The notes under the pieces were generated by a model that saw only the letters and a program-made list of their open reading frames with translations, made no database searches and was not told the origin of the DNA. Shown here piece after piece: positions 6,799 through 60,101 of a stretch of 64,000 nucleotides of DNA; within the stretch, counting starts at the first letter, position 1, and every line of letters begins with the position of its first letter. Both the position numbers and the translations under genes were made by a program. This stretch comes from Peribolospora baueri. Its lineage: Eukaryota. The stretch spans positions 62,001-126,000 of the forward strand of contig JAMDHS010000040.1 in NCBI GenBank assembly GCA_029717555.1, in the 5' to 3' direction.

Positions 6799-9700
6799 AT
6801 GGACCCACCTCCGACGCCTTCTCGAATCCGCGATTGGCCGCCGCCATCGCCTTCGTCGCCCGCGTCGCCCGCCTCTGCACGAACATCCTCCCAGTTCGGC
6901 TACCAGACCAAGCTCCTCGAGCGCTCCTCCTCCCGCGCCTCCACCCTTTCCCTCCACAAGCCGACCCACTCCGTGCCCAATGGCCCCGCCAGCGCTGGAG
7001 CGCTAGGCTCTGTCAGCGGCTCGGTTCGCCGCGCATATCCTCGTCCCCTCTCTCATCGGCCTACGTCCAGTATCGACGCCAGCAAGTACTCCTTCGCTAC
7101 CGGCGGCATTGGCGCCGGCGACAGGTCGAATGGGGCCGCTCCAGGCATTCGGAGTCCCGGCAGCGCAGGAATCTACACCGGCGGTCACTCCAACGGCGCT
7201 CGCAGCGGTCCCTCGAGTCCCAGCTTCAGCCTCTCCAGTTCGCCACCTCGAGACTGGGGCGCTCGTGCGGGAGCCGAAGTTAGGCACGATGCTGGCCCCG
7301 CTCACACGCCCGGTACGCCCGCCTTCACGCCTGTCACGCCCGTCACGCCCATCACTCCCACTCGGACTCGTCGTTCTCGGACCTTTGGACAGCCGAGCGA
7401 TGCTTTCAACGCAGCCGTCCTTGGTCCGGCGGGCGACGCTCTTAGCGCCGCCATACCCGACGGCACTCCCTCGTCCGTGCAGGGCATGCATGGCCGGGTC
7501 CGGCTTTCTCGCCAGGGAGCTCCGACGGCAGCCACGTCGTCCGTCACCTCCTCCCTGCCCTTCTCCTCATCCTCACGATGGATGGACAAGCAGCGCCATC
7601 TCCTCCAGGCGTACGAATACCTTTGTCACGTCGGGGAGGCCAAGCAATGGATGGAGCTCTGTCTCAAGGAGGAGATTGGTGCCGGCGTCGTCGAGATGGA
7701 GGAGAGCATGCGCGACGGCGTCGCGCTCGCCAAGCTGGCTAGGGAGTTTGAGCCGGATTGCGTGCCGAGGATCTTTGTGGTAAGTCAGACATTCGTTCAC
7801 GCTCTGTCCCTCATTACTTGTGGATATCGTCCGACACGTATCGCATATTTCACCGGCCTTTTGGTAGCACCCGAAACTCCAATTTCGGCACTCCGACAAC
7901 ATCAACTACTTTTTCATCTTCATCGTCAAGGTCGGCCTCCCCGAATTCTTCCGCTTCGAGCTGACAGACCTTTACGAGAAGAAAAACTTCCCCAAAGTCA
8001 TCTACTGCATCCACGCGCTTAGCCATCTGATGGCCCGGAGAGGCCTCACAGAGAGGATCGGCAACCTGCTCGGCAAGCTCGAGTTCTCTGGTACGTATAG
8101 GAAGGCTTCTCTGATGATCTGCGGGTGCTCTCGTCGATGCTGATCGTCCTTTTCAAAATGTTCCCTTTTATGTTCATTTTATATTCGTTTTCGGTTTCGT
8201 TTCTGATTTTCCTGATCACAAGACGATCAGCTGCAGGCAACCCAGCGAGGCCTCGATGCATCGGGCGTGGCCATGCCCAACTTTGGTGGCGTCGGCCGAG
8301 CTCTGGCAAAGGAGATAAACGAGGAACCTGAGCCCGAGCCAGAACCGGAAGAGTCGGAAGAGGAGCGTAGAGCGATGATGGAGGAATGGGCCACGACGCT
8401 GCAGGCGGCTGCGCGAGGTTCCTTACAGCGTAGGACTTGGAGGGAGCTCGCTCGAGGAGTGCGGGAGTCGGCTTCGGTGGCCACAAAAATCCAAGCGCAG
8501 GCGCGAGGCTGCCTGGCTCGCCGGCGTTATGAGCGACTCCACGCCCACCTCGGAGCGTGCGAGCGCAGCGTTGTGTCCGTCCAGTCTCTCGCGCGTGCGG
8601 TCCTCGCTAGGCGTGCTCATCACGGAGCGCTCAAGCAGCTCGAGGAGGTGTCTTCGAACGACGGTCTCCTGGAGTTGCAGTCGCGGATACGAGGCGCGCT
8701 CCAGCGACGACGCTTCTTCGCCCCTATCAACGCCCTGGACGAGCACGAGTCCAGCGTTGCCGTCTTCCAAGCCCACGTCCGAGGCTACCTCGCCCGAATG
8801 GCATACCAGGATCTCCTGTTCGAGCTTGCGGACTGCACCGAGTCGGTCATCAGGACGCAGGCGGTGTTGCGCACCGCGCTCGTCAAGAGGCGGCTCCTCA
8901 GCCGTATCCGTGGCTTGCAGAGCTCCGCCCCGTCGATCGCCGCTCTCCAGGCGCACATGCGCGGCGCCCTTGTGCGGAGAAGATTCATGGCGTTGCGGGG
9001 AAGCTTGGTCAAGGCCGAGGTCAGCAGGTCCGTCGGCGGTCTGCAGGCGTTCGCCAAGGCCGCTTTGACGAGGAGGAGGCACATGGAGCAGAAGAAGCAG
9101 CTTGACTTTGTCGTTCCCGACGTCGTAGGCCTCCAGACTGCTTGCCGGGCGTACCTGGCGCGAAGAGACTTTGACCGATGGCGACAGCACCTTGAGAACA
9201 GTCAGTCGGAAGCGACCTTTTTCCAGGCTCTGGTGCGTGGCTTCCTGGGCAGGCGTCGATTCCGTCAGAAGATGGCCCATTACCGACACAACCTCGACAA
9301 GGTCGTCAAGGTGCAGAGCATCTTCCGAGCACGTCAGCAAGGAGAGCAGTACCGCCGGCTGGCGATGGGCAAGAACGTGCCCGTGTCGACGATCAAAAAC
9401 TTTGGCCACCTGCTCAACGATTCGGACCACGATTTTGAGGACGAGATCAAGGTGGAGCGCCTGCGCAAACTTGTCGTTCAAAGTATCCGCCAGAACCAGG
9501 TTCTGGACTCGGAGCGAGAGGATCTGGACGTGAAGATTGCGCTGCTGGTCAAGAACAAGATTGGTATCGAGGAGCTCGTCAAGGCCAAGAAGGCCAAGGG
9601 GCTCATCGGCAGCATCGGAGACACAGGTGCCCAGTTCCAGCGACGGAACAGCGTCCTGGCCGCCGCCGGCGACCCATTCAGCGACCAAACACTGGACCGG

Positions 9701-12451
9701 GCGACGAAACGCAAACTCGAACTGTACCAGGAGCTCTTCTATGTCCTGCAAACACGACCCGACTACCTGGCCCGTCTCTTCAGCCGGATCGCCCGCATTG
9801 ATATGTCCGAGAAGCAGACAAAGACGGTGGAGCGGATCACGCTCACCCTCTTTGGCTACGCTCAAAAGGCACGCGAGGAGTTCCTCCTTCTCAAAGTCTT
9901 CCAGCGCTCCATCCAGGAGGAGTTGTCGCACGTGCATACGATCCAAGAGTTTGTCAAGGGGAACGCTCAGTACATCAAACTCGTCGTCCAGTACAACCGC
10001 GGGGCCAAGGAGCGCAAGTATCTCCGCGAGCTCTTGGGCCCGCTCGTGAAGGAGGTGATGGAGGATGACAAGCTAGACCTCGAGACCGATCCTTGCACAG
10101 TGAGTTCGGACTGAGTCTGTCGGTCTCCGTCGGCCGCGTATGCGTTCCCGCCATCTCACTCCTCGCCTCGCCCGGCTGGCCGTTTCCACGTGACCGAATC
10201 CCTTGCAGATCTATCGCAGCACGATCAACGACGAGGAGAGGAGTACGGGCCGACCGAGTCGGAGGCCGCTGCAGGTCAACTTTACCGAGGCGCTGGCGGA
10301 TCCGCAAGCTCGCACTTTGTTCATCCGGCGTGAGTGGCCGCCTCCCAGCCTCCCAGAGTGCCGGAAATCGCAGGTGTCCTCTGACCTTCGCCTTTGTTCC
10401 ATATTTCGCAGACCTGCAACACCTTCGGGCGGCGACAGAGATGTTCTTGAACGCGATCCTGGCGTCGACGAAAAAGATGCCGTACGGAATCCGGTACATC
10501 GCCAGGGAGGTGTTCCGCGCTCTTCAAGTGAAATTCCCAAACGAGCCGGAGGATGCGCTGTTCAAAGTGGTGGGCCATTTGGTCTACTACCGTTACCTCA
10601 ACCCGGCCATTGTCGCACCGGAAGGGTTCGACGTGATCGAGAACATTGTCGGTCCGATGCAGAGGAAGAACTTGGCCGAGGTGTCCAAGATGCTCACTCA
10701 GATCTCCGTAGGCAAGCTGTTCAACGACGAGAATCCCTATTTGCAGCCGCTCAACGAGTACGTCGGTCAGGCGTCCCAGAAGTTTTCGAATTGGCTAAGA
10801 ATGGGTATGTGGCCGGCTCTCGGCGTAGGCTGGCATCGCGTTGGCGACGTAACATGCTGACTGACCGCCGAGGTTCGGTGCGCTTTCGCCCTTGGCTCTC
10901 TGCCACATGACAGTGATCGACGTCGTGGAGGCCGAGCAGCAGTTTGCGGTGGACGAGTTCATCGACCACAACGTGGTCGAGAAGCCCGTCATCTACATCT
11001 CGCCCAACGAGATCTACTCGCTGCACTCGCTTCTGCTCGAGCAACTCGGTCATCTTGTGAGTTGAGCCGTCGGAAAGTCGGCGATAACTGAGACGGGGTG
11101 CTCACGATCTCGGGTAAACCTCGCGCAGGCTCCGAACAAGGACGACCCGCTGCGCGTGATCCTGCTCGAACTGGGTGGCGCTCCGGTCGGCGGATCGAGC
11201 GAGCTGAACAACGCTCGGTCTGGCGAGATCACTCTAGAGCTGGCCAACAGGCTCACGAACCTGAACGGCCCAGAGGCGGAGATCAAGGCGCTTTGGGTGG
11301 AGACGAAGCGACTGATCCTGTCTGTGCTCAAGGTGCAGACAGGTCCTAGCCTCATGGACGTGCTCATTCAGCCTGTGACGGAGGAGGAGGAGGTGATTTG
11401 GGAGGAGGTCATGAGCGTCGAGCTGGCCGCGGACCAAGAGCAGAGGAAACGGACGAAGAGCGAGCTTCCGCCGTTGCCCGTGGCTGGCGAACCGGTGCAT
11501 CTGGAGGACGTGAGAAGGTGAGTGGAGCGGGGCGAAACGAGGGGTAACGTGGGACCGGAAGTAGGGACTGACGGGGGTTCGTCATTGCGTGACGGGGGAC
11601 AGACTGCCATTCGTGCGAATCAAGGAGCACCTGCTGGAGAACATGTTGCAGCTGGAGCGACTTGGCAAGGTGTCGCGGGAGAACCACTTCCAAGACGTGT
11701 TGGACGCGATCGCGGTGGACATCCGGAACAAACACCGGAAGCGGATCCAACGGCAGACGGAGAAGGCTTCGATGAACGCGACGCTGGCGAACCTGGCGGA
11801 GAAGAAGGCTTATCTTGATGAGCAGATCTCGACATATCATGGGTATATTGATCAGGCAATGCTGACGATGCAGAAGAAGGGGTGAGTAGGAGGGGAAGGA
11901 GGTGGACGTGGGGAGATGGATGGAGGTGACGCTGACCGCGCGCGCTGGCGTTCGTTCACGGTTGGGTGGGTGGTCAGGAGCAAGAAACGGTTCGTGCTCC
12001 CGTTCACTCAGCAGTACTTCCACCTGCGCGAACTCAAGGCGTCGGGCAAGGTGCCCCAGTTTGGGTCGTACAAGTACACGGCGGAGCGACTGTACAAGGA
12101 AGGAGTGTTGCTGTCGATCGACCAAGTATCGCCACGGCAGTTTGATAAGCTCTCGCTGACCATCTCTTCCGACGAAGCGGGGCTGTTCACGATCGAGACG
12201 TCGTTCGCGGGCCTTGCGGGGGAGATGATGGATCTGAGGATTGAGGATTTGTTGGAGGCGCAGTTCAACAACGTCCAGAGCATGAGTCTGTTCGACGGGG
12301 CTGCCAAGGTCAATCTGAATCTGCTCATCCATCTGATCAACCGCAAGTGAGTGAGGCCGATGATGATGGATTTCCAGCGTGGTGACCGCACCGGCTGACG
12401 TTTCGCTCCCTCCCCTCCCTTAATTCACTCACTGCCAGGTTCTACGCATGA
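6799..12451 (+). CDS. IQG1: IQGAP-related Ras GTPase-activating-like protein (Iqg1/Rng2 family)
   Basis: CH domain (YEYLCHVGEAKQWME...DGVALAKL), about 10 IQ repeats (IQAQARGCLARRRY, LQSRIRGALQRRRF), RasGAP-related domain (YYRYLNPAIVAPE) and RasGAP_C (YKYTAERLYKEGVL...VNLNLLIHLINRKFYA*). Confidence 0.95.
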
Positions 12452-24670: not shown

Positions 24671-26205
24671 ATGGCAGTCATCACATCATGGGAGGACGCC
24701 CCCAAGCGGGTGCAGGGTCCCGCTCCCAGGAAGACGTTTGAGGAGACGTTGTCCGAGTTCGACGACGTGCCGCTCTTTATGAGGTCTCTTCCTAACGAGG
24801 TTGAGAAGAACGAGGCACTGAGCGCTTTGCAGACCTTGGCTCATGATGGAACGCCTGACGGTTAGTGGTGCTGGCTCCGTGAGCCATAGGACGTCTGAGG
24901 TGTTGTCCAAGGACCGCACACCGTACTGAGTTTTCCCACTCTCCGCTCCCCGTGCGCCTACTGTCCTTCAGAGGTTGCAGCCAATTTTAAGTCTCAGGGC
25001 AACGACTACTTCATGGGCAAGCGATATCGGGAGGCCGCCGACTTCTTCACGCAGGCACTGGACGCGAAACCGGAGGACAAGGTGTTAAAGGAGTCAATCC
25101 TGAACAACAGGGCGGCGTGCAACCTAGAGCTAAGTGCGCTGGTTCCTTGATGTACTACTGGCAACGATGAGCATTATGCCGGACGGTGAGCTCGCTCATG
25201 CTGTCTTCTTATTCAACGATTGTCTATAGCAGAAAATTACGGACGGGTCCTGGCCGATTGTAAAGCGGCGCTCCTGCTCAACCCGTCCTCTCAAAAAGCA
25301 TTTTACCGTTCCGCACGAGCTCTACTCCTCTTGGACAAAGTTGACGAGGCTTTAGACTGCTGCGGGCGAGCATTAAAAAATGACCCCGGCAACGGTCCGA
25401 TGAAGGTCGTGCAGCAGAAGGCGAGGGAGCGAAGGGAGGGGAAGTGGCGGGGTGATGCGGAGAAGACGGAGCGCGAACGACGAGATCGAGAGACAAAAAA
25501 GGCTCTAAGCCAGGCTTTCCTCGTGAGTTGTGTTCACGTCGAGAAGCAGGAGTGTGCCCCATTTTCTCGTGCACCTTATCAATCGAAATCTTGACAATGC
25601 ACCTCTTTCAGGCTCGTGGCCTAATCGTCGAAAACTCGCCTCGGCCGCCGGACAACCCTCATCCGCCGGTCTTCGACCCAGCCTCCCTCCCGCCCTCCTC
25701 CTCAGCCTCTCTGCCTCTCGTCCCCGCACACCTTAACTCAACATCACTACCAGAGCCTCCAACATGGACCGCTCCGGATCCGATCCGAACGCCGGTGGCC
25801 TTCCCGGTCTTCCTCCTCTATCCACAACACTCTCAGTCCGACTTTGTAAGCGAGTTCCACGAAGACACGAGACTCGGCGATCAACTCGACGTCATGTTCC
25901 CACCAGAGTCGAGGGGTAGCTTGCCCTGGGATGCCAAGGGAGAGTACGTAAGCTCCAATTTGGTACTTTACGCAACGACAAAGGGCAAGAAGATCTTCAA
26001 GGCGGGGAAGAAGCTCACGCTGCGCGAGCTGATGGACAAGGCCGCCGATCTGGGCGGTGCGGATCCAAACCAGAGGGATGGCATGGTCATCAAGGACGGG
26101 TGTCTTAGTATCGTCATTGTTCCCAAGGGAGAAGCGGAGAAGGATTGGGTGGAGGCGTTTAAGAAGGATCGCGAGAAGGGTGGGGATGGCAAACTGACGT
26201 GGTGA
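24671..26205 (+). CDS. CNS1: Hsp70/Hsp90 co-chaperone Cns1/TTC4 (TPR + wheel domain)
   Basis: PLFMRSLP, VAANFKSQGNDYF, NNRAACNLEL, NYGRVLADC, KAFYRSARAL, FPVFLLYPQHSQSDFVSEFHED. Confidence 0.92.
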
Positions 26206-26415: not shown

Positions 26416-29207
26416 CTAGGATGTATGTGATGACGTATCTATGCCTTCATTTTCTCGGGAAGAAATGATGTCCACGGTCTGAAGCTGTTCAGACCATTCC
26501 ACGACTCGCGGATCCACAGTCACTTTGCTGTGCGCATGAGGATAAGTCCGCAAGTGATACATATTTAGCGAATGAGGCGATGAGAGTGGCGGTGATGCCG
26601 AACAATGATTTCGTGCTCACCTAGGATCAAAGTTGTCAACTTGTAGACCCTGCAAAGACGTTGCCCTGCTGAGAGCAACGTACGCTTGACCTGTACAGAA
26701 AGAAATTTGGCGGTGAATACGACACGGGAAGCCAGGGCGTTTCAAACAAACGCGTCGGTTCACGCACCCGTCGCGAATGCCTTTCCAAGGTCGATCTTCA
26801 CTCTGTCCAATGTCTGCCCTTGGCTCTGTTCATGCGAAAGGAGACGGTCAGAAAAATCTGAACTGAGCCGCACAGGCTCAACAATCAACGACAGTCTTAC
26901 CTTATGAATGCTGATAGACCAGGCCAAGATCAATGGAATCTGGAAAAGGTGCACAGAATCCACGCACCCTTCAGCACCTTCCTTTCCTGTGAAAGCTCCG
27001 CAATCTAACCCACCTGCGTTCTCTTCGCCTGTGTTTTACCCTTCGCGTCCTGCACCTCGAACGTGACTGGCGGGATGATGAGCATCTGACCAGTCGTAAA
27101 TCGAACGATGGGCCATGTCGCCTCGGCCTTCTCCACCTCGGCTCCTCCGCTCGTCTCTTGCTTTCCCACCGGCCAAGCAACCCTAGCGACTCTCAAGATG
27201 TCCTCGTTCACCCGGCCCTCCACCACTCGTTCCGTCTCAAAGTCCCAAAAACCGACCACGATCCCCAGACTCCCGTTGACGAGCCGTTCCAGTTCCATAT
27301 TCTGTATGAGCATGACGCTGGCTCCCAACTTGAGCTCGAGAGAGGTTTGGGCGAGTGTGCAGAGTTCCAGGTACCGTCTGGCGTTCCTCAGGTACTCTTG
27401 TCGCCGTTTCTCCGACTTTTCGCGGTGGAAGGGATAGCGCTGGCTGTAATCAACCGCCGGGTAGATATGAGGCGGTGACGGTAGAGAGGCCAACCTCGCC
27501 CTGTTGGCGGCAGAGACCTGAGCACGCAATGGATAGCTGAGCGACAAGTAGACGCGTCAACGCCCACGTACGCGCCCCGCTAACGCAGCATTCAGAGCTC
27601 GGCCTAGAAGGTCAGAACACGTACAGTTCCACTGCCGGGATGTCGTCGTCGTATTCCACGTTTCGAGACAGTGACTCAAAAACGCTTATCGTCTTTGGAG
27701 TGAGCTTTCCATGACGAACCTCATTCAACATCTTGACAAACTCTGGCCGAGGGAAGGACAACAGAACGTGCGAGTTAGTCACGGATGAAAGAGAGTCACG
27801 CCTAGGTTAAGGCTCACCCGGGTCCTCCTGACGGAAGACCGTCTGGAGCATTAGCACATCCTGTACGCAATCCGTCCAAGTCTTGGCGTCGAACACAAAG
27901 CGCGAACGATATCCCGCCGCCTGATCTTCGGGCGCAAGACCCATGGACTCAAGCATGTATCCCTCTATGAGCTCTTCGTAGCTCAGTAAGGGCTCCTCGT
28001 TCGTCCTCAAAACCGGAGGGAGCTGGTAGAAGTCGCCTGATAGGATGAGTTGAATGCCACCGAAGGGCCGAGGGTCCCCGCGAAGTTTGCGGGCAAGGTA
28101 TTCCAACTTGTCGAACAGGACGGCGTCCAGCATGGAGACTAGAGAGCAGAAGCACGCGCCAGCAAAGCCCAACGTCAGCCATGCACCTTGTTACAACCAC
28201 TGCAAAAATTGAAGCCTGCCCTTACCTTCATCGATGATCAGCACTCGAACTTCCCTCCACTTCTTTATCCGTCTCTTCTTTTTCAGCAAAACCTCAAGCT
28301 CCTCTTTGGATCCCTTTCCAATGCCAATACCTTCGAGCATGAACGCAGACGTAGCAGTACGGATTCGTGAGCTCTCGACAGCCCTCGCTTCCTCACTGAC
28401 GGGGATAGAGACGAACCAGCCCAGGTATGAAGCGTTCCACCTCCGATCATATTTGCGGCGATTCCCGTGGTGGCAGTAACGGCCACGGCCGCTTTGCCGT
28501 GAATGCGACGTAGATCCTCGATGATCTTGCGGAGCAAGACCGATTTTCCCGCGCCTGACAAAAAAAGAGGAGGAGAAACGGAGACGCTGCTATGGGTAAG
28601 CACGAAGATGTTCTGAATGAAAGGTGAATGAACTTACCGGCACATCCCGTGAAGAAGATGCTCCTGCCGTCCTGAACAACCTTTTGTCGCACCGCCTCCT
28701 GCTCCTTGGAAAGGCTGATATTTGGAGGCGATAATTTAGCGGCAGCCTTTCCCTTCCATATCAATCCCCCCTTGGACTTGGGGGCCAGAAATGCGGCAAG
28801 CGTCGATGGTTGATCTGGATCTAGGGAAAAACATGCACATTTTGAACCGAAGTGGCGAAGCCGGGTTGGTGAGTTTCTCGCTTCGAGGATCGGACATGCG
28901 CAACGGAATGCTCACCTGGCGCACCCAGTAAATTAAGACGAATGTACTTCTCCGCCTCCTCCGTTGATATAAACCCCCTGGCTCTGCAACCTTTATATCC
29001 CCGAGTGTGCTCTTTCACATCGGCCCTGTGATTAAAACAGCGCCGTCGTATTCAGTCCTCGGCCTGGTGCGCGCTCGGTGCGACATCGGATATGCAAGGC
29101 ACAAGGCGCACACACCATGTTTCATAGACCCTGGCGCCATGTCTTCCGTTGAGAGTAGCGTAGCAAGAGAAGCGCTGCCGGGCGAGGGCGATCAGCGACC
29201 GTTGCAT
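26416..29207 (-). CDS. PIF1: Pif1-family 5'-3' DNA helicase (paralog A) with N-terminal RNase H1-type hybrid-binding domain
   Basis: [26 protein letters not shown], Pif1 signature [70 protein letters not shown]. The 5' exons splice in frame to [44 protein letters not shown]. Confidence 0.9.
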
Positions 29208-29540
29208 TGGTTGGCGAGATGGGCGGCAAAGGTGCTAGGACCTCCTACAACCGGGGCCCGTTCCTTGGCAAAAGATTGTAAGCTGGTGTCTAGCACTCTT
29301 TGGTTTCGCCTTCTCCTTCACGAAAAAGCGCCTCCTCACGACAAACGTGGTCGTCGTGGGCGCTTAGCAGAGCATTGGATGAAAGGAAGATCGAAGGAGA
29401 GCTGAACGGGCGCCGGCAACTATTTAGAGCTGCGGCGTCGGCTGCGGTGCCGATCATCACGCTTGCCTCCCCACCCGACGTCTTCTTGCGGTGGGACGAT
29501 CACCAACCTCAAAACCGTCGAGCCGCCTGGGCAGCCCGGA

Positions 29541-30118
29541 ATGTCGGCGCAACCGTCAGAGCAGCCCACAGGGCAGGAGCAAACGTACTACGCCGAGAAC
29601 GTACTACACAACGCGAAGCAGACGTACTAGTGAGTGCGACACGGATCCTCACCGCACCGGCTGCTTGCTGGCTGGTGCTGGCGAAACGAACATCAGCTCA
29701 CCTCCTCGCCTCGTGTGCTCTTCTCCGTCCGTCCTCCTCAGCGTCCGATCCACCGTCGCCTCCGTTTCCGGCTCGGTAGCGGGCATTTTGGGGCTTACAA
29801 ACTTGAAGGGCTTTTATTTCTATCTTGTCTCCTCCTTTCTCTCCACCCTCGCCATCCTCCTCGTCAATTGCAAGGGCCGTCCGAGCCGGTACATCCCCTC
29901 CTCGTCGGGACTGTCCTCTTCTCTCCCCGTGACAATCTTCAAGCTCATGACCGAGGGACTTCAGGACAACCTGTTCAGCTTCGTTCTATGGTGGACGTTC
30001 TGGTTTGGCATTATTCACGGTAAGTGTTCAAATCGCTATGCTCATGTTGCTGCCAGCGTGTCCGGAGCGTGTTGGAGCGTTACCTGACTTGCCACATCAC
30101 TTCTCAGTCTACGATTGA
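29541..30118 (+). CDS. EMC6: ER membrane protein complex subunit 6 (Rab5ip family)
   Basis: YYAENVLHN...VSGSVAGILGLTNLKGFYFY...FSFVLWWTFWFGIIH|VYD*. Confidence 0.9.
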
Positions 30119-30308: not shown

Positions 30309-32083
30309 TCATCGCAAACGTTGCGCACGGCGGTTGCGGCTGCGCAGCAAAGGGAGGGGAAGCGGGCGCGTGAGTGACTCTGTCCGATTAAAAATCACCG
30401 AGCGCGAAAAAGGCGGGGTACTCACCGGCCGTCACGATCTCTGTCCCTCTCGCGTTTGATCAGCTCCTCCTCGCTGAGAACCTCGAGGCTCGGACCAAAC
30501 TCCGTCTGCCTCGTCCACTCCCTCCACACGCCCCGGAGCCTCTCCGCTCCTTTTCCTTCCTGCCCTCCCCACCCTGTTCCGGCGGAAGCTCCCGTGCCGT
30601 CTTGTCCGAGGACACCGATTTCGAGCGCCGTGCGCTTGTGTCGCAGGAGCTCGTCGTGCAGGGCGTGTGCGATCAAGGGTAGCGACTCGCCTGAAAGACC
30701 GAGGTCTCGGCAGAGCAGGGCTGCGAACGCCTCGGGTGTGAGTGGGGACGTCAAGTCCCATTCGATACGGTCCCTAAGATGGTAGTTTTGGATTTGAAGA
30801 TCGAGCTGTCGCGAATGGGTCGGTCGAGACAGCACATGAGAGGGGCGCGCGAAAGACGGGAAAGGAACGATGACGACACGCAGCAGCGAAGACGCGTCGA
30901 GGAAGCACAACTCACGTCGACGTAGACTCTCAAATCATCCTCCTCGTGGCCGCCATTGGCCTCTTCGATCCTCACATCCACCCTCTCAACATCCAAAGCC
31001 TGATTTCCGCTCTGGCCCACCTTCGTCTTCCACTCTTCGTCCGCCCAGATCTCCTCCCAAGTCCGCTGTAGCCCGTGGTCCCACCCCTCATCCTCCCTCG
31101 CGCCGCCCGCCGTGGTCAGTTGCATCTCCGCTACGCTGGAATACCGTTGCAGCTGATCCCGGATGGATGCTTCGATCTGCTCCGCGTACGGCGTCTGCGG
31201 GATGTCCAGGTCGGCGCAGAAGATTCGCGCAAAGGCCGATGGAGATATGAGTTTTTCTAGATCAAGTCGAAAGATCCGTCAGTACGCTGCTGTACACGCT
31301 ACATCGCGGGGGGGAATAGCGGGCTCACCGTTGACGTTCCACATGAAGACGTCTCGTATGCGAAGCGAGTCCGTGTTGAACTCTATGCGAATGGGAACGA
31401 GGACCTCTCGATTTCCCGCGTACCGGGTGAGGTCGTAATCGGGGCTGCTCCGCATGAGGAAATGCGTAAGACGAGTCAAGAGAAGAGCAGAAAAGACGAT
31501 GGAACGCAATCCAAGGCTCTACTCACAAATACACGTGTCTTGTCTTCTGAGCCTCCTTTAGGAACACCTGATTTCCAGGCGCAGGTAGGCCAAGATAGCA
31601 TCGTTCCTCCTCCTCCTCCGGCGCCGGAGTCTCGTCCACGTTCGGCGTGCCCTTGCCTCCCCGACCGGTACCCCCATCGTCGCTGCTCTCGAACAGCCAG
31701 TCGTCGTCCGAATTCCCCTCCCCATAGTTGACAATGCCCGCCGCCGCTCTACGTCTCGTATCCCCTCTCCGTGGTCGACCACCCGGTGTCGCGCCATCCG
31801 CGAAACCCGGTTCGCCGCGCTGGTCGGGGGGAAGCGGCTGGACAAGCGCGGTCGTACCGGCGCGTAGCCGCGAAGGATAGGTGGTGCACTTTGCCTGCGC
31901 GCGCGAAAGCGGAGTGAAAGGCGGTATAGGTGCCGAGGTGCTCCCCAGTGGCTGTGGTGCCGGGGCGACAGGCTGAACGAGGCCGGGATAGGCATTCAGG
32001 GCTCCTGGCTGTGGGTAAGCTGGCGCAGGCGAGGCGCCCAGCGAGGACGAGCCGCGCGGGTTACGCCGTGGTCTACCGGCCAT
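30309..32083 (-). CDS. SFH1: RSC chromatin remodeller subunit Sfh1 (SNF5 domain)
   Basis: TTYPSRLRAGTTALVQP, EVLVPIRIEF...IRDVFMWNVN, LRDRIEWDLTSPLTPEAFAALLCRDLGLSGE, FGPSLEVLSEEEL. Confidence 0.9.
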
Positions 32084-32423: not shown

Positions 32424-35400
32424 ATGGTGCGCTATCCGGCCGCCACGTGCGAAGATTCGTGCGGCCTGTCGTGCCGACGCTCACGAGTGAATCCTGATAT
32501 TGTATTCCAGCCAAAGGACTACGACCGGAGTGTCAATGCCAAGCCCGCTCGAGGCGGCCCTCCCATCGTCACCACTGGCAGCTCAAAGTCGGTCGCTCTC
32601 AGTTCGTTGCCGCTGTCATCCTTCTCTTCGCCTCCTCGCACCGCCCGATCCGCAGAGTCCCGCTCGCCGGGCTCTCCGACAAGGCTAAGTTCTTCGCCAC
32701 CTCCCTCACCTTCCGATCGTGTTGGCGGACGACCCGGGTCTTCGAGCCTAAGATGCCTTTCGTCGCCCACGAGCAAAGGCAAAAAGACTGGCCGGTACTC
32801 CCAGCATCAGTTGTCGTCACCACACGCATTCCACATACAGGAACCCCGTCCCGTTCCTGAGCCGACGACGTCCGGTAAGATCCCGCCTGAAGGCCACGGA
32901 TCAGGTCTCTTCCGGCATGAACCTTCTTTCAGCGCAACACAATACTCCGATCGGATGGAGTCGTCATCGTCACCATCGCAAGCTTCGATGGGCCAGCGCT
33001 GCTTCGTCGACATGAACGAATCCAGCTCACCCATGGCGGTGACGGAGGACCTAGACGACGCCGCGCAGCTGCAAGATCTCGGGATTGGATCTCTAATCGA
33101 AACCACGTTCGCTTCACCTTCAACCGTATCTCCACCAGGCTTGCCGGCAGAGTCACGAACTCTGAATGAGCATGGAGTGCAGATCCAGCTGTCGGATGAG
33201 CAGGAGCGGCTGAGACGCAAGATTGTAGACGAGGGAAAGTCCATCTTCTTCACGGGATCTGCGGGTGAGCGTACGATCCATTTCTCTATCGATTTGCCCT
33301 CGTCCTTGTGTGCACAGGTACTCGGCGAGGCGACGTCATGGCGTTCTTACCATCTCGCATGCATTTTGTAGGGACGGGCAAGTCAGTCCTTCTTCGACGG
33401 ATTATAGCTGACCTCTGGGACAAGTATGGCAAAGAGGCCGTAGCGGTGTGAGCCCCGTTTAACTTTACGCGGTAGAGACGTCGACGCTCAGATTTTGTCG
33501 GACTGCATCCTTGATAGAACCGCTACGACGGGCATCGCTGCAGTGAACATTGGCGGCACAACTTTGCACTCTTGGGCGGGTGAGCCTTGAAAATCACGAG
33601 GCCTCGCTTTCGCATGCTGTCGAACTCGCACTGATCTGTATGCGTTACAGGTATTGGGCTCGGCAGAACTCCCGTTCTTGAACTCCGCCGCCAAGTTTAC
33701 TTCACTCCTCACAAGGGGGTTCGACAACGTTGGCTCGGCACGAAGGTGCTGGTCGTGGACGAGAGTGTGTGTCTGATCGTCTCCGATTCATCTCGTGCTC
33801 AATATCTGGCCTGCTCACCGTACCGGCCGTTCATCCTCCAGTTTCCATGCTTGACGCCATTGTCTTCGATAAATTGGACCATATCGGCGGTTACGTGCGC
33901 GCCATGGACAATTTGGGGCATTTGCAGGACGTGGATGAAATCCCCCCAGAGAACTTTACTCCTTTCGGAGGAATTCAGCTCGTGCTGTGCGGTGAGTCTT
34001 ATGGTGCATCATAGCTTGAAAGGGACGCTCCTTCGTCAAGGTTTCGAGATCTTCACTCGATCCTTAAAGGTTGTTCTTCCATTAGGCGACTTCTTCCAGC
34101 TCCCACCTGTGATCAGCGATGGCGACTCTGTTCGACTTACTCTTGAAGAACAACGACTGAAGAAAACAGACGGAGTAAGGGCTTGGGAGGGCAAGCGAGC
34201 CTTTATGGACGAGCGAGATCGTTATCACCCCACCCGCTTCGTATTTGATGCTCACGGATGGAGAAGATGCGTTCAAGAGATACATGTGCTCAAGAAGGTA
34301 TGGAGGCAGAAAGATGAAAGTGGGTAACGGGTGTTCCTTTGATTAGCAAGCGCATACGATCCCCCCTCTCAGTGCTCCACGTGTTCCCGCTCTAGCCTTC
34401 GTAAAACTTCTTAATCAAGTCCGGTTCGCCAAAATGACCCAAGAAACGGTTGAAGTGTTCCGGACTTTGGAGAGGGAGATTCCGTCGTCGGCCGCGGGGG
34501 ATGTCACAGAACTGTGAGCTCGCAGCTTTCCACGTCCGCTCGCACTGGTACTCAACCTCCTTTTGGCTCGGTGAAACAGGTACCCGACACGAGAGGAAGT
34601 CGGCAGGGTCAACCAGAAGAGACTGGTCGTTCTACCGGGATCGACACGTACCTTCTTCTCCAGAGACCTTGCCCCCCCTTGGGTCGAGTTCCCGGGCAAC
34701 TGGGAGCCATCCAAGAAGGAAGGATACGTTAGGAGGAAGCTCGAGCACAACGTGATGGCGCCGCAAAAGCTCGATCTCAAGGTTGGCGCGACAGTGATGC
34801 TAATCAAGAATCTCGCGCAAGACGGGTTGGTCAACGGCAGCACAGGCAGGGTCATCGGGTTTCGGAGGCTAATGCACGTCGAATCTGCTCAGCAGCAAAA
34901 GTCTCAGGAGACGAGCATGACGAAATTATCAGACGGAGGAGAGGCGTCGGCAGAAGAGGCGACGTTGCAACACGTCGGTATTGCGCGCCCGGCTGACGAA
35001 AGGAAAGTCGACGGCGCGCTGGCGATGATCCAAGCGGAACGACAGCGGATCGATGCTCGACGAATGGAGGAGGCTTCCAGCGCCGGAAGACTAGTCAACG
35101 ACGCTGCGTTGCCGAAGAAATTGGCCTATCTTGGGACACAAACAAACTCTGCATCGCCGCCCATGTCCTCTTCCAGAAACGCCAAGAAAGTGAACATAGG
35201 CTCGGGCAGAACGGGCATGGGAAGCGAGTTCGATGCGATCCCCGACATCCCATGGCCGGTGGTGCAGTTCTCGTCGGGTCAAACGCTCATCATTCCGGAG
35301 ATGTCATTCGAGGTGCAGGATGCGGTGGGCAATGTCGAGGTGGTGCGGAAACAGGTTGGATCCCTATTTTTCCTTGTCCTCAAGCCCCACGCACCGGTTA

Positions 35401-36163
35401 TTGAAATAAGCTTTTACGATGTTTGCGGGGGTCTGTAGGTGCCTCTTCTGCATGGATGGGCGCTGAGGTGAGTTTGATGGAAATCTCGGAAGAAGTATTT
35501 GGTGTGAATTCCGATTCTAACTGCCCATCCGCGTTCTAGCATTCACAAGTCTCAGGGACAGACGCTCGACCGGGTGAAAATTGATCTTGGACGGACGTTC
35601 GCACCTGGTAGGTGGTAGACGTGCGTGGCCTTTGACGCATTCGACGACGGCTCGCTTCATGAACCGCTTGTTCCGGTACTTTCTACCACACTCCAGGTCA
35701 AGCCTACGTCGCCTTGAGCAGAGCCACGTCGCTGGCCGGCCTTCAAGTGCTCAATTTTCGGGCCGAGTGAGTAGACTTTGTGGCCTGATCTTTACGGTCA
35801 TTGACGTGCCGTGCCGTCTTTCCTCATCCACTCTTTTCTTCTTGCTGCCTTCGGAATGGCCGATCCAGAAAGGTGCGAGTAGACGCTCGCGTCCTCCAGT
35901 GGGTTCAGACGATCGAGGGAGCGCCGTGTGCACCACTCCCCCTTCCGCCTTTTGAGCGCCGCCGACAGCCACAACCCAGCGGTCGCGGCAGGTTTCACAA
36001 CGGGCGCGGGAAAGGAGCGGGCGGGAGGGGCGGCGGCAGAGGTCGGGGAGAGAGCGTGCGGATCCGTGGGCCTTTGGACGACGACGACGAGGAGTTGTTC
36101 GGAGACATGACGGCAGAGGACGAGCAGGCTATCATCGCCACGATGGAAGAGGCCGGCTTCTAA
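32424..36163 (+). CDS. PIF1: Pif1-family DNA helicase (paralog B)
   Basis: [68 protein letters not shown]...[36 protein letters not shown]. The start codon is uncertain because the N-terminus is Ser/Pro-rich. Confidence 0.9.
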
Positions 36164-51682: not shown

Positions 51683-54600
51683 TCAAAGAGCAAGGTAAGA
51701 GGCGATCTTGCCCATCAGCCCCTCGTCGACGACGGGGCACGTCTGCAGGGCTTGCGAGCATGCGGCCGTCTCCTCCACAGACAAAAGAGCCGCCCCGCCG
51801 ACAATTTCCTGCTCGTCCTCATTCTCGAGTTGCCTTTCGAACCAAGGAAGGAGGTTGGTCGCATCGTACTCAATGCTCGACGACGAAAGCTGCTTGAGGA
51901 GGGCGACATAGTCGCGAAAGTTGGTCGGTCTGACCTTGATGCCCCACGCCTTGGCGGCCGCGGTGCAAATGTCGGCCCATTCCGTCCGGTGCGGGTTGGC
52001 CACATGGTAGAACAGGTTCCCCGATCGCTGCTGTCCCACAATCTCCACCATGCTCCTGGCAGCGACGTCGACCGGGACCCAGTTCGTCGCGACCAGGTCG
52101 TAGGGGACGATGCCGTTCAGAGCGCGCATGGTCGTCAGGACCCGTGGAGCCCATTCGCCTCTGCGCCACCGGCCTCGCTCGAGGTCGCCGCAGACCTGGC
52201 CCAGGCGGACAATGTGCAAAGGATCGCAGCCGACGTCTGCGGAAAACGAGGAAGAGCACGATCGACACAGCGCCGACAAAATGTGTTCGGCCAAGAGCTT
52301 GGACATGCCGTAGCCCTTTCGATGCGCGATCAATCGCAAATGTCAGCACATCGAGTCGCGCCGAAACAAGCGCCGTCGTGCCCACCCAGCCTTCGCGCGG
52401 ACCATCAAATGCTCACCTGGTAGATTGCCATCGCCGGATCAAGCTGCACGGGCTCCTCGGGAACAGTCTCCTGCGGGGACCCGATGCACGACGCGATGGA
52501 CGAAATGAAAAAGAGGTCGATCGGCCTCTCTCGGTGGAAACACAGTTCGGCGAGATTGCGCAACCCTGTAGCGCACGGGAACAGACTTCCTGTTAGAAAC
52601 GCGCCTGCAGCCCTGGAAAGAAGTGTGCGGCTGCTCACCGCCAAGCGAGGGCTCGTAGTGTTTCAGACTCCGGTTGAAATCGACCTGCCAGCCGATGTGC
52701 ACCGCGCCCGTGACGTCGCCGAGGGAAGCGTAGTCGGCTTCGCTGAGGCCCATATGAGCAGCGGCGAGGTCCGTCGACGAAAGCGCCTGCAACTCGCCAG
52801 CTTGATGCTTTTGCAACAGGAGCACGTCGTCGAGACCCCATGCTTTGCATGCGCCAGAGATGCGCTCGAACCCGCCGTTACGGACGATAGCAGTGACTCG
52901 CGTGCGCGTCGTGGCCAGCAACTGAGAGAGAAAAAATGCGCCGACAAAGCCGGTAGCGCCCGTCAGTAAGAGGTGCGGGGGCACGGTTCCGCATGGTTCG
53001 TGAGGCCGGTCCCTGCGCAGGGTCGTCGCAGTGAACGGCGCTGCGTAACGGGACAGCATGTCGAGCATCTCCTCGCGATGCAATATATGGCCCGTCGGCG
53101 TCGAACAACTTCCTGACAGGTACCTCGCGAGCGCTCGTGCGTCGGGACAGTCGTAGATGGCGCGGGTCGACACATCCATGCCCAGACGGTTAAGCTCCCG
53201 TCTGAGATGGGTCGTCCCCAACGAGTCGAGGCCGAGCTCGACAAATGGCGTGCACGGCTCTATAGATTTCGTGTTCGCGTCCACGGGCAGGACGCGTCCG
53301 AGGGCCGATAAGACGGCCATCTCCAAGCTGTTGAGACTGTAGACGGAACGTTGGAACAGGTCCAATGTCAACCCTCGTGCCAGGAATCGCTCATACACAG
53401 ACCGGGTCTTCCCTTACCTTTGTCGATCTGGGGATAGCGGCGTCGGCGGGAAAACCTCGGACGTAGGCCGAAGGGGATATGGCGGTGACTTGATCAAGGG
53501 AAGCTCGGCACTGTGTCGGGCTTGCGACCTTCTTCGCAGTGGAGAGAATGTGGGAGACGGCCACAGGAACTGCCGGTCGAACGGATACGTGGGAGTTTTG
53601 TGCAACTTGCGGGCCACCGAAGCCGTGTCGCGGTGGAAAGCTGCCCAGTCGAGATCGGCGCCTCGGTTATACATCGTGCTCAACGCGAAAGTGACATCCT
53701 TGCTCGTGTTCGCTGGCTGCAGTGAGGGTACGACAGACAGACTCGTCGTTCTCAACAGGAGTTTGGTGAGCTCGGGCTCCGGGCCGATCTCCAAAGCGAG
53801 CGCCTCTTTGGGCAACGCGCTGCTGCAGATGGCTTGGAAGAACCGCACGGGCTGACAAGCCTGTCGCATCCAGTGTGCGGCATCTGTTCGGTCCACCACG
53901 TCGCCGGTGAGCGAAGACACCCATCGAATGGTGGGCCGCTTAAACGCGTAGGACGATTCGAGAGACGTGAGGAACGTCGCGAAACGGCCGCTGATGAGAG
54001 GCTCCTCCAGTTCCTGGACGTGGAACGGTTGCTTGCTGCGAAGACCACGAAGTGACAAGCGCTTCAGCGTGGCAAGTTGGGCGAATTTCTGTAGGGCCAC
54101 CTCGGAGCCGGACACCACTTGACGGTCCGCCGCATTGTACGCGGCGATGACGGCGCCGCTGTCTTCCGCTAGGGGGAGAACCTCCTCGGCGCTGGCGGCG
54201 ACCGAAATCATGCCTCCGGAAACACGACTCGAGGCCATTTGCATGGCCCTTCCGCGGTAGCACACGAGTTCCAGACCCTGCTCCAACGTCAGACTGCGCG
54301 ATACGATCGCAGCCGAGTATTCGCCGAGCGAATGCCCCACTACGACGCCGGGAGTGACGCCCCACGTTTCCCATGCGGCGGAGAGACAGAGTTGGAAGGC
54401 CACCAGCAGAGGCTGCAGGACGACGGTGTCGTCCGGCTCGTAGACGTCCGCGCCGTCCTCGAAAGTCGGATCGTCGGCGTCCACCAACGCTTGAAGATCG
54501 AGGCCGATAGCGCGTCGCACGACTTTGGCACACCTTTCCCACGTTTGCCGAAAGGCATAAGACTGCTCCAGTAGCGCTGGAATCTGGGATAGGACGGCCA

Positions 54601-57600
54601 CCGCGGACGATTGGCCGGTGAAGACAAAGACGATCGGTGCACGCCGCGTAGCCACGGAGGAGGACCCGGCCAAAAGCGAAGCAAACCCGTCGAGGTCCTG
54701 GAGCATTTGGCGTCGGCAGGAGACAGGTATAGCGATGCGATGTGAAAAATGCTCTCGCCCAATGTTGGAAGTATAGCAGAGGTCGGAAAGACCGGGGAGT
54801 GATCCGGCAATATAGTCCCGCCACTCGCGCACGCTGTTGAGTAGCGAAGTCGTCGTCTTTGCCGAGATGGTCAAAACAGGCAGTTTGACACAAGAGGAGG
54901 CACGCCTCGGCGGGGGAGGCTCTTTGAGGACCAGCTGGCCAATCGTTCCAGAGAAGCCGAGCGAGGTGAGCATGATCCTCCGTGGACGCGCCGTACGCTC
55001 GTAGGGAACGTGCTCCAGGGGCACGACCATCTCGCAGGGTTGCAATCGCAGGTCGGAGCGCACTCTTCGGATGTTCTGCCCAGGCAGCAGGTTGTTCTCA
55101 AACGAGGCCACGGCACGAGCGATGCCTACGGACGGTGATAGGCAACGCGGCAAGCAGGGACGTCAGGCACGGCCGGCCTTCAGACATAGGCGGCAGCGCT
55201 CACCTGCAAGGCCAGCAGCTTCTTCCAAATGGCCTACAACGGACTTGACCGACGACACGAACAGGGGGTCTTTGCGCTCCTGAGAAAAGGTCGCCTTGAG
55301 CGCTTCCATCTCTGTCGCAGAAAAGAGGAGCTGAGCATAAGGGGACCTGCTCGCTTGGCAGCGCCTCCTCGAGCGCGCCCTCAAACTCGGTCACCATTGT
55401 TGCTCACCGAGTGCATCCCCGAGCCTTGTCCCTGTGCCGTGAGCTTCGACGGCGTCAATGTCCTCCGGGCGCAATCTCGCCGATTTTAGGACGTTCTGCG
55501 CAAGCCTTATCTGCGCTGCCGCATTGGGCGCCATTAGACCGATGGACTTTCCATCGCTTCCGATGGACGTGCCTTCGATGATGCCGAGGACGGGATCTTG
55601 AGCGGACACGGCGTCATTTAGCCGCTTCAACACGCAGAAGAAGGCCCCTTCCGAGGGGAGGTACCCATCTGCCTCCTCGCTAAATGCCGCGCTGTGTCCG
55701 CACGCCGAACCGAGGCCTGCCCTCGACATAAACGCAAAGTTGCTGGGGTCGAGGTGCGTTGTGGTGGCGCCCACGAGGGCCAGCTGAGTGGTTCCAGCTC
55801 TCAAGTCCTGACATGCGAGGTGAATGGCGGTCAAACTGCTCGAGCAAGACGTTTCCACGGTCATTGCAGGCCCGTGCGTGTCAAGGAAATAGGCCAGCCG
55901 CCCGGAGACCATGGCGTTGGATTGGCCCGGTCCCCAGAACAGATCGTGCGCTGCTTAAACGGAAGGATCGGCGCCGGACAGATCTTAGTTGGAGACCGCG
56001 ACCAATGGAGAGCCGACTGTTCGATAGCAAAGTTGGGGGACTCACCGTCGTTGCCCTTCCCTTCCGTCACCTTCCGAAAGCCCTCGTCATCGACCGCGGC
56101 CACGTAGATGGACGTGTCTGTATCTTTCAAGGTCGACGGAGGGACACAAGCGCTCTCCAACGCTTGCCAGGCGAGCTCGAGCGTCAGCCGCGCGCTGGGC
56201 CGCATGGCTTCGCCTTCGGCCGCCGAGAGGCCGAAAAATGCCGCGTCCATCTCTTCGACGCCCTGCACGCCTAGCCAGCGGCCAGGAGGAAGCTCCAACC
56301 CCGTTTGGCGTTCATATTCTGCAAAGGCGGTACGGCGCGGTGGCGCCGGTGACGCTGGAGAAAGGCCGCCCTGAACGATGGCTTGCCAGAACTGGTCCAG
56401 CGTGTGAACGTCGTCTGGCAGGCGACACGACATGCCGATCACCGCGATGGCCCCGTCGGAAGAGGTAGGACGCTGGGGGAACCCGGCGGAGGAGTCGGGA
56501 TCGACCTCCGCTTTGATGGTTTGCGCTACGCGCGGTTTCTCTGCGCGGACGATGCCAGCAATGCTGCCTCTTGTAATGACTTGGGCAGCGGTAATGTCAA
56601 GGCCGACCTCGCGACGCAGGGCGGTGGCGATACGGCTGGCGTCGAGGGAGCTCATTCCGAGGTCCGTGAGGCTGTCCTCATCGCCGAAGGAGAACTCGCC
56701 CTTCGCGGGCCCGAGGAGCATGTTTTCCACGACCCGCCTGACGTTGGCCATGACCTCAGGATCAAGGCGCTGTAGGCTCGGGTCATCGCCGCCTTGGAGG
56801 CGACGATCAGGCTCATCGTCAGATAGACCGAGGACGCGGAGCACTTGCTCCGCGCGAGCGTCGATCAAGGAGCGATAAGCGCCCCACACCTCCTTGGTGC
56901 TGACGGTACCCTTTCGAGTGAGCGGGATGGCCTTTGACGGTGGGAGGACAATTAGTTGTCGAGGGCTGATGCGCGCAAACGGCGGCAAAACACGATTTGC
57001 ATGAAGGAGGCTGCCGTAAATGTAGTCGAGGCGGGCCTCGCCGGAAGCAGAGGGTGAAGTGTCCGGGTTCTCCACCACCGCCAACAAAAAGTCGCTCAGC
57101 CCGTGTTGACTTGGAACCCCCGCATAAAAAAGGAAGCGTCACGTCAAGAGACAGACACAGAGGTGCTCGATGCATAGCAAGGCACTGCCACGCACCTGTT
57201 CCCGATTACACAAGCTCTGCCAAAACCGCCCTTGTCTCGAAGCACCCTCTCCACCTCGAGCGAGTTGCATTTCTCGCCCGTCTTGAAAATGATGTAGTCA
57301 GCGATCCTATCTCCGCCTACAAACCCGGAGGTCGTCCTCTTGAAGACGCAGCCTGTGCGGAAGACGCCTTTGCCCTGGTCGTCCAAGCCCTGCAACGCCG
57401 GATCAGACCGTCCGATATATGCCGCCGGAATGCCCTTGGACTTGATGACAAGCTCGCCAACGTCGCGCTCGTCAAAGCCGGGCACGGTCTCGACAACATG
57501 CTCGAAAGTGGGGATCGGGAGAAGCGTCTCGGTCGAACTGCCGGGCGGACAGTCTGCGGCGGCGCGGCTGAACATGATGGCACCTGCGACCGAGAGGGCG

Positions 57601-58847: not shown

Positions 58848-60101
58848 CTTCGGCGGCGGCTCATTGCATCGTGGGATGACGGCTCTCAAAGACGTAGAAT
58901 GTCTTATAGTCCGTGCACAGACGCCCTCCCGCCCGGCCTGTGCAAGGGTGGAGCCGTCCGCCAGCACCGCCCCTACAAGCCAAGCGATAGCCGAGCCAGC
59001 CCATGGCTTTGAAGGGATGTGTCCTCGCCGACCTCATCACATAGTGAATCGGCCGTCCGACCGCTGGGCAAGCTTCTGTTTTGCACCCGCTCGCTCAGTC
59101 AGTCGTCCGGCTCCAGCCCCAGCAGGCTCAGCTTCATCCGGCCACACCGTTCGATCCGAAATGGGGCCGCTGTAGGCGTCTGCTGCGTGCCTGTTGCACG
59201 CCGCCAGCACGTTTCTTTGTCTTGATGTTGTCTCGGTACGTTGGCCTGGCGAACGCCGCGGAGATGCGGCTCTTTCTACGACTGGCATGTGTAGTGCGGC
59301 TGAAGCGATTGTTCGATCGCCAAGCTGCTTGCCGCCGGAGGTTGACAGAGGTCGCTTTCGCGCTGGAGTTACACCCGTCTAATGGTTAGGGCGCAGGCTA
59401 AAATAGTGTCGAGAGCCGCTCTGGATCCACGTAAGGTCGATCTTGGCTGCGGACGCCCCCTCCGCTCCACCCGTTCTCAACGTCGTCACACCACAAAACG
59501 TCGCGGATGAAGCCGACAGCCACGCTCGCACTGACGGACACACGCCACGTCGCAGGGACGAGGGAGCTGTCCGGCTCGTTTCAAGGCCAGCCGTGCGCGA
59601 TGGATTTAGGGCCGGTCTGGCTTGGGCGTAGCGACGAACTACTGCAATCGGTGTCGGCGGCCGTCGAGCCGAGTCTCATGCTGCGTCTTGGTTCAAAGCC
59701 GTCCTGGAGCTTCAAGGCAGTGCCGTTGGTGACGAGACGATAGAGAACTGTTGTCCTGTGCCGCTCAAGCTGCTCGCCGGCCGCCTCACGGGATGCGAGG
59801 TTGCGGAGGTCCGAATTCGCTCGCGCATTCCAAGGCGATGGCACCAGAACGTGAGGAGCTTCCGTCTCTCGCTCAGTCACCAGTTTCTGGCGCACAAGGC
59901 AAGGTCTTTTCCGCCGTGGTTGGTGACCCTCACATCGCTCTCTCGGGAGCTCATCTGCTTAGGGTCGTGCCCCCACGTCGGCGCTCGTTTGGATCGGCAC
60001 TCGAGGAACCTGGACGCTGGCAGCAGCAGCTCTCCGTTGCGTGGCCACGGCATCACAGACGTTTAACTTGCCCAGAGTGCGACAGGTCCCTATCTATTTA
60101 G
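58848..60101. promoter_or_regulatory. Putative bidirectional promoter shared by the PKS hybrid and PAL
   Basis: A ~1.25-kb interval between divergent start codons with no credible gene. Function is inferred from geometry only. Confidence 0.45.

Follow-up and report, generated by a model that had tools for sequence, protein, structure and literature searches.

What does the Pif1-type helicase gene on the minus strand of a 64,000-nucleotide stretch of the Peribolospora baueri genome (GenBank assembly GCA_029717555.1, contig JAMDHS010000040.1, positions 62,001 to 126,000; hereafter the window, in whose own numbering all positions are given) carry at its N-terminus, and what might that addition do? 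A first-pass annotation, made from the sequence alone, had proposed that the helicase is fused to an RNA:DNA hybrid-binding domain (HBD) of the RNase H1 type, hidden by introns, and that the product is a dedicated R-loop- or primer-targeted helicase. The analysis described here indicates that the fusion gene, referred to as HBD-Pif1, is very probably real. Judged by its sequence, the gene is a new, rather divergent member of an HBD-Pif1 family that Pfam recognizes in many public proteomes. A fuller reading, which we consider reasonably likely, is that the gene encodes an intact HBD-Pif1 paralogue in which an N-terminal HBD, a disordered linker of ~40-100 residues, and a complete superfamily 1B (SF1B) motor would together target RNA:DNA hybrids.

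The spliced gene model runs from 29207 to 26416 and joins 12 exons into an open frame of 622 residues (Table 1). All 11 introns have GT-AG boundaries, with lengths of 74-95 nucleotides. The start codon is an ATG at 29207-29205, with an in-frame stop 10 codons upstream, and the stop codon is a TAG at 26418-26416. Exon 1 ends in TG, and the first G of exon 2 completes a tryptophan codon. Retention of either of the first two introns brings a stop into the frame (open reading frames 29052..29234 and 28821..29051). The remainder of the helicase lies on exons 4-12 (26416..28554), from the lysine of Walker A through the DE box, signature motif, and 2B domain to motifs IV-VI. In the spliced translation the Walker A (GxGKS), DE box, Pif1 signature (between motifs II and III), and later helicase motifs are all intact. 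The start codon, the three peptide stretches, the two introns, and the frame of the helicase all lie where the first-pass annotation had placed them, and the junctions it gave (~29115/29024 and 28915/28821) are correct to within one or two bases.

Evidence for the domain content of the protein came from Pfam scans of single exons in the unspliced window sequence and from custom profiles used to score the spliced protein. Exon 6 alone matches PF05970 (PIF1) with 47 bits against a cut-off of 25.9, and exon 8 alone matches PF21530 (Pif1 2B, SH3-like) with 35.8 bits against a cut-off of 23.9. With these two matches and the motif set, the predicted protein is a Pif1-family (SF1B) helicase. The match to PF01693, the Pfam family of the HBD, that had been anticipated was found in part: exon 2 alone scores 21.4 bits, just over the cut-off of 21 (E 3.1e-4, positions 19-44 of 44), but exon 1 alone has no Pfam match, nor does exon 3 alone. 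A search of solved structures with each HBD exon alone gave one chance match to a ribosomal protein for one exon and none for the other. An HBD profile built from 10 Pfam-verified homologues gives exon 1 alone 12.3 bits and exon 2 alone 18.2 bits, compared with 39.6 bits over residues 12-60 for the spliced N-terminus, which argues that the two halves make one domain. As a chance control, the whole window was cut into its 2008 six-frame stop-to-stop pieces and each was scanned with the HBD profile. The exon 2 frame was the best match (E 7e-4) and the adjacent, collinear exon 1 frame was the second best (E 9.5e-4), with the third at E 0.11. Scored with a profile made from 67 full-length HBD-Pif1 proteins, the window model matches at HBD positions 5-56 with 32.8 bits and at helicase positions 124-594 with 595.9 bits (model residues 95-604, beginning within exon 3). 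Moreover, BLASTP aligned the model collinearly from residue 16, inside the HBD, to residue ~600 with three HBD-Pif1 proteins (P0153, P0143, and P0024) at 36-38% identity. Exon-level Pfam scans, spliced profiles, and collinearity thus bear out the proposal that this Pif1-family helicase begins with an HBD of the RNase H1 type, spread over two short 5′ exons.

An alternative explanation for the same exons is that exons 1 and 2 form a separate small HBD gene, or are not used at all, with the helicase made from another start and no fusion protein produced. Small HBD-only genes do exist in fungi, one example being the Helitron-captured PF01693 gene of Pleurotus described in a paper on Helitrons of that fungus (PMC4289320). 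Two features of the data weigh against the fusion: the splice junctions were assigned from homology and GT-AG signals only, and the full score of the spliced HBD comes from a custom profile, with the Pfam score contributed by exon 2 and none by exon 1. The arrangement of the gene nonetheless argues for a single protein. Exon 3 has no Met, so a helicase-only protein cannot start there. The model has no Met between M1 and M164, and M164 lies past the P-loop; a helicase without exons 1 and 2 would therefore lack a start codon before its ATP-binding motif. Both introns have GT-AG boundaries and keep the frame, and the HBD halves are collinear with the helicase on the same strand. In addition, an HBD at residues ~2-60, ahead of the helicase, is present in dozens of proteins that were annotated independently, and this is where the domain lies in nearly all family members. 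Taken together, these data make a separate or unused HBD gene very unlikely.

Two further observations concern the extreme N-terminus of the fusion protein. Residues 1-14 (29166-29207, minus strand) are Arg-rich, contain no acidic residues, and resemble a mitochondrial presequence. In most family members the HBD begins within the first 8 residues, and the window copy has ~8 extra N-terminal residues.

The first-pass annotation implied that the fusion is rare, and this was not borne out. An exhaustive representative search with exon 8 returned 301 proteins at E <= 1e-3, the best with 40% identity, indicating that the representative protein library searched contains no close orthologue of the window copy; a word-based protein search with the same exon gave a single match. 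Among the 54 listed exon 8 matches of at least 400 residues, PF01693 exceeds its cut-off in 12, in each case on the N-terminal side of PF05970, and narrowly misses it in one more. Named sources of HBD-Pif1 proteins among the exon 8 matches are Abortiporus, Phlebia, Puccinia striiformis, Cryptococcus, Schizophyllum, and Tulosesus, together with the ascomycete Diplocarpon rosae. A profile search with 10 HBD-Pif1 proteins gave 4660 matches, and 75 of the best 120 carry both PF01693 and PF05970 by manual count, a proportion that is biased upward because the search profile itself contains the HBD. These 75 include the “DNA repair and recombination protein pif1” of Coprinopsis cinerea okayama7 (P0180), the “ATP-dependent DNA helicase PIF1” of Cryptococcus neoformans and C. 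gattii, and many proteins of Kwoniella, Mycena, Phanerochaete, Pleurotus, and Paxillus. Direct Pfam scans gave PF01693 scores of 66.9 bits for C. neoformans P0243, 64.5 bits for C. cinerea P0180, 60.9 bits for K. bestiolae P0231, and 46.8 bits for P. striiformis P0153. The architecture also occurs in the slime mould Physarum polycephalum, whose transcript P0281 reaches 68.6 bits with PF01693 and 150.9 bits with PF05970. Lastly, looking up P0036 in the ESM Atlas gave a cluster of 53 members that bears the automatic name “Ribonuclease H1 N-terminal/PIF1-like helicase” and, according to its Atlas row, is 82% viral, mostly Nucleocytoviricota. The fusion is therefore annotated in dozens of basidiomycete proteomes, in Physarum, and in a cluster with mostly viral members.

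The first-pass annotation had also suggested that characterized Pif1, Rrm3, and Pfh1 proteins are not known to have an HBD, and the data agree. PF01693 was not found in Schizosaccharomyces pombe Pfh1 (P0363), or in the canonical copies of C. neoformans (P0299), P. striiformis (P0327), or K. bestiolae (P0333), by Pfam scans with matches listed to E 1e-8, and in a review of Pif1 helicases ScPif1, Rrm3, Pfh1, and hPIF1 are described as having N- and C-terminal regions that lack conservation (PMC8998199). The literature matches that contained both HBD and Pif1 terms were R-loop reviews and a Pleurotus Helitron paper, in which PF01693 is in a separate captured gene. Full-text literature searches, which covered few subscription papers, found no paper describing an HBD-Pif1 fusion. 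Harman and Manna (2016) are said to treat the accessory domains of amoebal Pif1 helicases and may already describe the fusion in amoebae. The first-pass annotation had counted an architecture already both widespread and characterized as grounds for refutation; it is widespread, but no sign of characterization was found, and the family seems to be without description or test in the literature.

Several public sequences deserve separate comment. Diplocarpon rosae P0104, the sole ascomycete among the HBD-Pif1 proteins found, has a very long branch (2.2-2.5 changes per column) and an unsure placement, and a sister species has a canonical Pif1, P0354, without an HBD. P0104 may be a transferred or fast-evolving copy. 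Some public models placed in the HBD clade lack a full HBD, namely P0027 of Austropuccinia, which keeps only PF01693 profile positions 26-44, at residues 154-172, and P0218 of Pleurotus djamor, as compared with P0225 of P. pulmonarius. The missing or shortened HBD in such models looks like the consequence of missed short 5′ exons and not of true loss. A metagenome scan with exon 8 yielded one weak locus (L001, 63% identity over 32 residues), which was dropped; tblastn aligned only 59 residues there, without the N-terminus.

How the HBD-bearing proteins relate to canonical Pif1 was addressed with trees. Further Pif1 proteins of species already represented were obtained in a search with the HBD-Pif1 protein P0128, and the main tree contained 61 rows and 466 helicase-core columns, with the HBD excluded (IQ-TREE quick search, LG+G4, unrooted). 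A canonical clade, with a support of 98 in the Shimodaira-Hasegawa-like approximate likelihood ratio test (SH-aLRT), contains Mucoromycota proteins, ascomycete Pif1 proteins including Pfh1, and one HBD-less protein from each of seven basidiomycetes: C. neoformans, Cryptococcus sp. DSM 104549, three Kwoniella species, P. striiformis, and Austropuccinia psidii. Each of the seven has another copy that the tree places apart from the canonical clade, among Tremellomycete or rust proteins (HBD-side/canonical pairs: P0243/P0299, P0059/P0318, P0231/P0333, P0259/P0344, P0258/P0346, P0153/P0327, and P0027/P0361). Six of the seven non-canonical copies have a full HBD, and the Austropuccinia model has only the C-terminal part of the domain. 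Public annotation labels both paralogues “PIF1” in all seven species. The window HBD-Pif1 protein lies outside the canonical clade, beside the Tremellomycete HBD group, at nodes with support of 84-88. How the HBD groups branch relative to one another and to the canonical clade is not resolved by the tree. A FastTree analysis of 72 rows and an IQ-TREE analysis of 34 rows agree on the main points, and leave the two Pif1 copies of the window (see below) and an HBD-less clade without resolution. On these trees, HBD-Pif1 is a predicted second Pif1 paralogue family across Basidiomycota (mushroom-forming and related fungi). Physarum P0281 groups with other HBD-bearing proteins away from the basidiomycete groups (SH-aLRT 81), a position that allows for more than one origin of the fusion or for its transfer; its presence in both Physarum and the viral cluster hints at the same.

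The window contains a second Pif1 gene, identified by tblastn with the HBD-Pif1 model and by a gene model of its own. It lies ~3.2 kb from the HBD-Pif1 start codon at 29207 and is divergently oriented. Its helicase core is complete and 44-58% identical to that of HBD-Pif1, and the protein has a Ser/Pro-rich N-terminus of ~250 residues, a 2B region extended by a long insert, and a C-terminal tail rich in RGG. A six-frame scan with the HBD profile found no HBD half in any frame there, its first exon has no match to a Pfam family, and the family profile matches the protein at positions 115-594 only. In the 61-row tree, the two window genes are sisters at an SH-aLRT of only 88, and our own reading of both gene models is that they share several intron positions. 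The nearby duplicate seems to have traded its HBD for a long N-terminus of low complexity and a tail of RGG type, which suggests that the two copies divide the labour.

The proximity of two Pif1 copies could also be taken as a sign that HBD-Pif1 is a helicase derived from a transposon or virus, such as a Helitron RepHel remnant or a giant-virus insertion, or else a decaying duplicate. Helitron helicases are abundant in basidiomycete genomes, according to the Pleurotus Helitron paper (PMC4289320), and the ESM Atlas cluster with this architecture is predominantly viral. All catalytic motifs of the window copy are intact, however, and its 11 introns are of host type, several of them matching introns of the neighbouring paralogue in their position along the protein. 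The protein groups with cellular basidiomycete proteins, and the HBD-Pif1 profile covers its 622 residues end to end, leaving no room for a Rep domain. The neighbouring genes, Cns1/TTC4, EMC6, and SNF5, are ordinary housekeeping genes, which argues against a transposon setting. A mobile, viral, or decaying origin is thus extremely improbable. Identity as a Helitron RepHel transposase was specifically rejected: there is no Rep or extra domain, the protein has 622 residues where such transposases typically exceed 1000, and the gene is flanked by EMC6 and Cns1/TTC4.

If the fusion is real, does the N-terminal domain look like one that binds hybrids? A comparison of the family profile with solved structures gave E 1e-171 for ScPif1 (5o6b), E 2e-142 for human PIF1 (6hph), E 5.8e-13 for the N-terminal domain of yeast RNase H1 (1qhk), and E 1.3e-11 for 3bsu, which is listed as Ribonuclease H1 and holds the human HBD, presumably in its hybrid-bound form. 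An AlphaFold2 model built for the orthologue P0024 with 67 aligned sequences had a mean predicted local distance difference test (pLDDT) score of 83.4. The predicted HBD (residues 9-49, pLDDT 84-93) has strands at 9-14, 20-22, and 35-39 and helices at 25-29 and 42-49, giving the order strand-strand-helix-strand-helix, which is the order in the solved HBD. The helicase is predicted with confidence, and residues 52-94 between the two have a pLDDT below 50. The predicted architecture would thus be a small duplex-binding head on a flexible tether.

The residues of the window HBD were mapped onto the human RNase H1 domain by way of the homologue P0036. Human W43 corresponds to W31 and is kept, and human K59 corresponds to R47 and is kept as a basic residue. 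Among nine HBD columns that are invariant or at least 90% conserved in a 67-row family alignment, the window copy keeps eight. In the human domain, W43A and KK59/60AA are reported to impair hybrid binding (PMC10639055).

The evidence for hybrid binding by the window HBD, as read from its predicted sequence, is mixed. An alternative model is that the fusion is real but that the HBD binds double-stranded RNA or another nucleic acid, or serves protein interaction or autoregulation, and does not target hybrids. The HBD is known to bind double-stranded RNA as well. Several observations pull in this direction and away from hybrid targeting. Human K60 corresponds to G48, and human F58 to A46, so neither residue is kept; the family consensus in the 67-row alignment has Ser at the K60 position, and affinity or specificity may therefore differ from those of RNase H1. 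The window HBD is also among the weakest of the family, with its 39.6 bits set against 41-87 for most others. As for the motor, the Pif1 review notes that ScPif1 at R-loops may resolve G-quadruplex (G4) DNA on the displaced strand and not remove the hybrid directly, and it lists protein interaction, modification, and regulation among the roles of Pif1 N-terminal regions (PMC8998199). The retention of the Trp important for hybrid binding and of one basic position, the eight conserved columns, and the family-level match to solved hybrid-binding domains at E 1e-11 to 1e-13 argue in the opposite direction, and on this evidence a role unrelated to hybrids is unlikely, if worth serious consideration. 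Hybrid targeting by HBD-Pif1, as an R-loop- or primer-directed helicase, is plausible.

A hybrid-directed HBD-Pif1 protein could work as follows. The HBD would dock on the duplex part of an RNA:DNA hybrid; R-loops, hybrids at telomeres, and Okazaki or mitochondrial primers are examples. Thanks to its flexible tether, the motor would then load on adjacent single-stranded DNA, move 5′ to 3′, and strip the RNA. The review of Pif1 helicases notes that Pif1 prefers RNA:DNA substrates, yet only 15-20 bp of hybrid is unwound per binding event (PMC8998199). By raising the local concentration and residence time of a poorly processive helicase, the HBD might permit repeated attempts on the same hybrid.

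Direct R-loop removal by yeast Pif1 helicases is still debated, the alternative being that they clear only G4 DNA and proteins nearby (PMC8998199). A phylum-wide paralogue with the hybrid-binding module of RNase H1 would offer a clean, testable case for direct hybrid action. A broader scenario is possible but doubtful: a hybrid-directed Pif1 would exist beside the canonical one across Basidiomycota, in itself a natural argument for direct in vivo action of Pif1 motors on RNA:DNA hybrids; in this lineage it would have been duplicated again, with an HBD-less daughter, to give three specialized Pif1 proteins; and the scattered occurrence of the fusion in Physarum and giant viruses would reflect repeated invention or transfer because it works. 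There are also implications for annotation, as the HBD is probably under-counted where 5′ exons are absent or shortened in public models, and the basidiomycete “PIF1” label spans two paralogues.

The closest known systems are the basidiomycete HBD-Pif1 proteins, such as C. neoformans P0243, C. cinerea P0180, those of Kwoniella spp., and Phanerochaete sordida P0172. These have the same order of HBD, linker, and Pif1 core with 2B domain in ~580-690 residues, are collinear with the window protein from the HBD to the C-terminus, and share its side of the tree, apart from the canonical Pif1/Pfh1 clade. The window copy differs from them in its full-length identity of only 36-44% and its more divergent HBD, with Gly and Ala beside the conserved basic residue where most of the family has Ser and His. 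Saccharomyces cerevisiae Pif1 and Rrm3 and S. pombe Pfh1 share the SF1B Pif1 helicase core with the window protein, but canonical Pif1 proteins have long, non-conserved N-terminal regions without an HBD and form their separate clade. Eukaryotic RNase H1 (human 3bsu and 6vrd; yeast 1qhk) likewise combines an N-terminal HBD, a flexible linker, and a catalytic module, and the counterparts of W43 and of one basic residue are common to both. One difference is that the catalytic module of RNase H1 is a nuclease, whereas that of HBD-Pif1 is a helicase that would remove RNA by unwinding; the K60 and F58 counterparts set the window copy apart as well. Physarum P0281 and the mostly viral ESM Atlas cluster have the same two-domain order as the window protein, with P0281 grouping apart from the basidiomycetes.

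Table 1. Exons and introns of the HBD-Pif1 gene and other genes located in the window (positions in window numbering).
Feature	Position	Strand	Remarks
HBD-Pif1 exon 1	29207-29116	-	start codon, Arg-rich ~14 residues, first HBD half (residues ~12-31, up to conserved Trp)
HBD-Pif1 intron 1	29115-29026	-	90 nucleotides, GTGTGT...CACAG, phase 2, interrupts Trp codon
HBD-Pif1 exon 2	29025-28916	-	second HBD half and start of linker
HBD-Pif1 intron 2	28915-28821	-	95 nucleotides, GTGAGC...CCCTAG, phase 1
HBD-Pif1 exon 3	28820-28638	-	linker and helicase start, to first half of Walker A motif
HBD-Pif1 intron 3	28637-28555	-	Walker A motif completed after this intron
HBD-Pif1 exon 4	28554-28417	-	gene model
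HBD-Pif1 exon 5	28330-28226	-	gene model
HBD-Pif1 exon 6	28138-27818	-	PF05970 match
HBD-Pif1 exon 7	27742-27625	-	gene model
HBD-Pif1 exon 8	27536-27014	-	PF21530 match
HBD-Pif1 exon 9	26939-26901	-	gene model
HBD-Pif1 exon 10	26825-26768	-	gene model
HBD-Pif1 exon 11	26690-26621	-	gene model
HBD-Pif1 exon 12	26527-26416	-	gene model, ends with stop codon
Second Pif1 paralogue	32424..36163	+	12 exons, 943 residues, introns all GT-AG; 5′ end provisional
IQ/RasGAP (IQGAP-like) gene	8216-10111	+	
Cns1/TTC4 (Wheel domain)	25456-26202	+	
EMC6	29428-30084	+	
SNF5	30422-31275	-	

Among the neighbouring genes, EMC6 apparently lies no more than a few hundred bases from the HBD-Pif1 start and is divergently oriented. 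Further along the window, at 52439-59030 on the minus strand, lies a large gene resembling those for polyketide synthases and nonribosomal peptide synthetases, with AMP-binding, PP-binding, ketoacyl-synthase, acyl-transferase, PP-binding, and NAD_binding_4 (reductase) domains.

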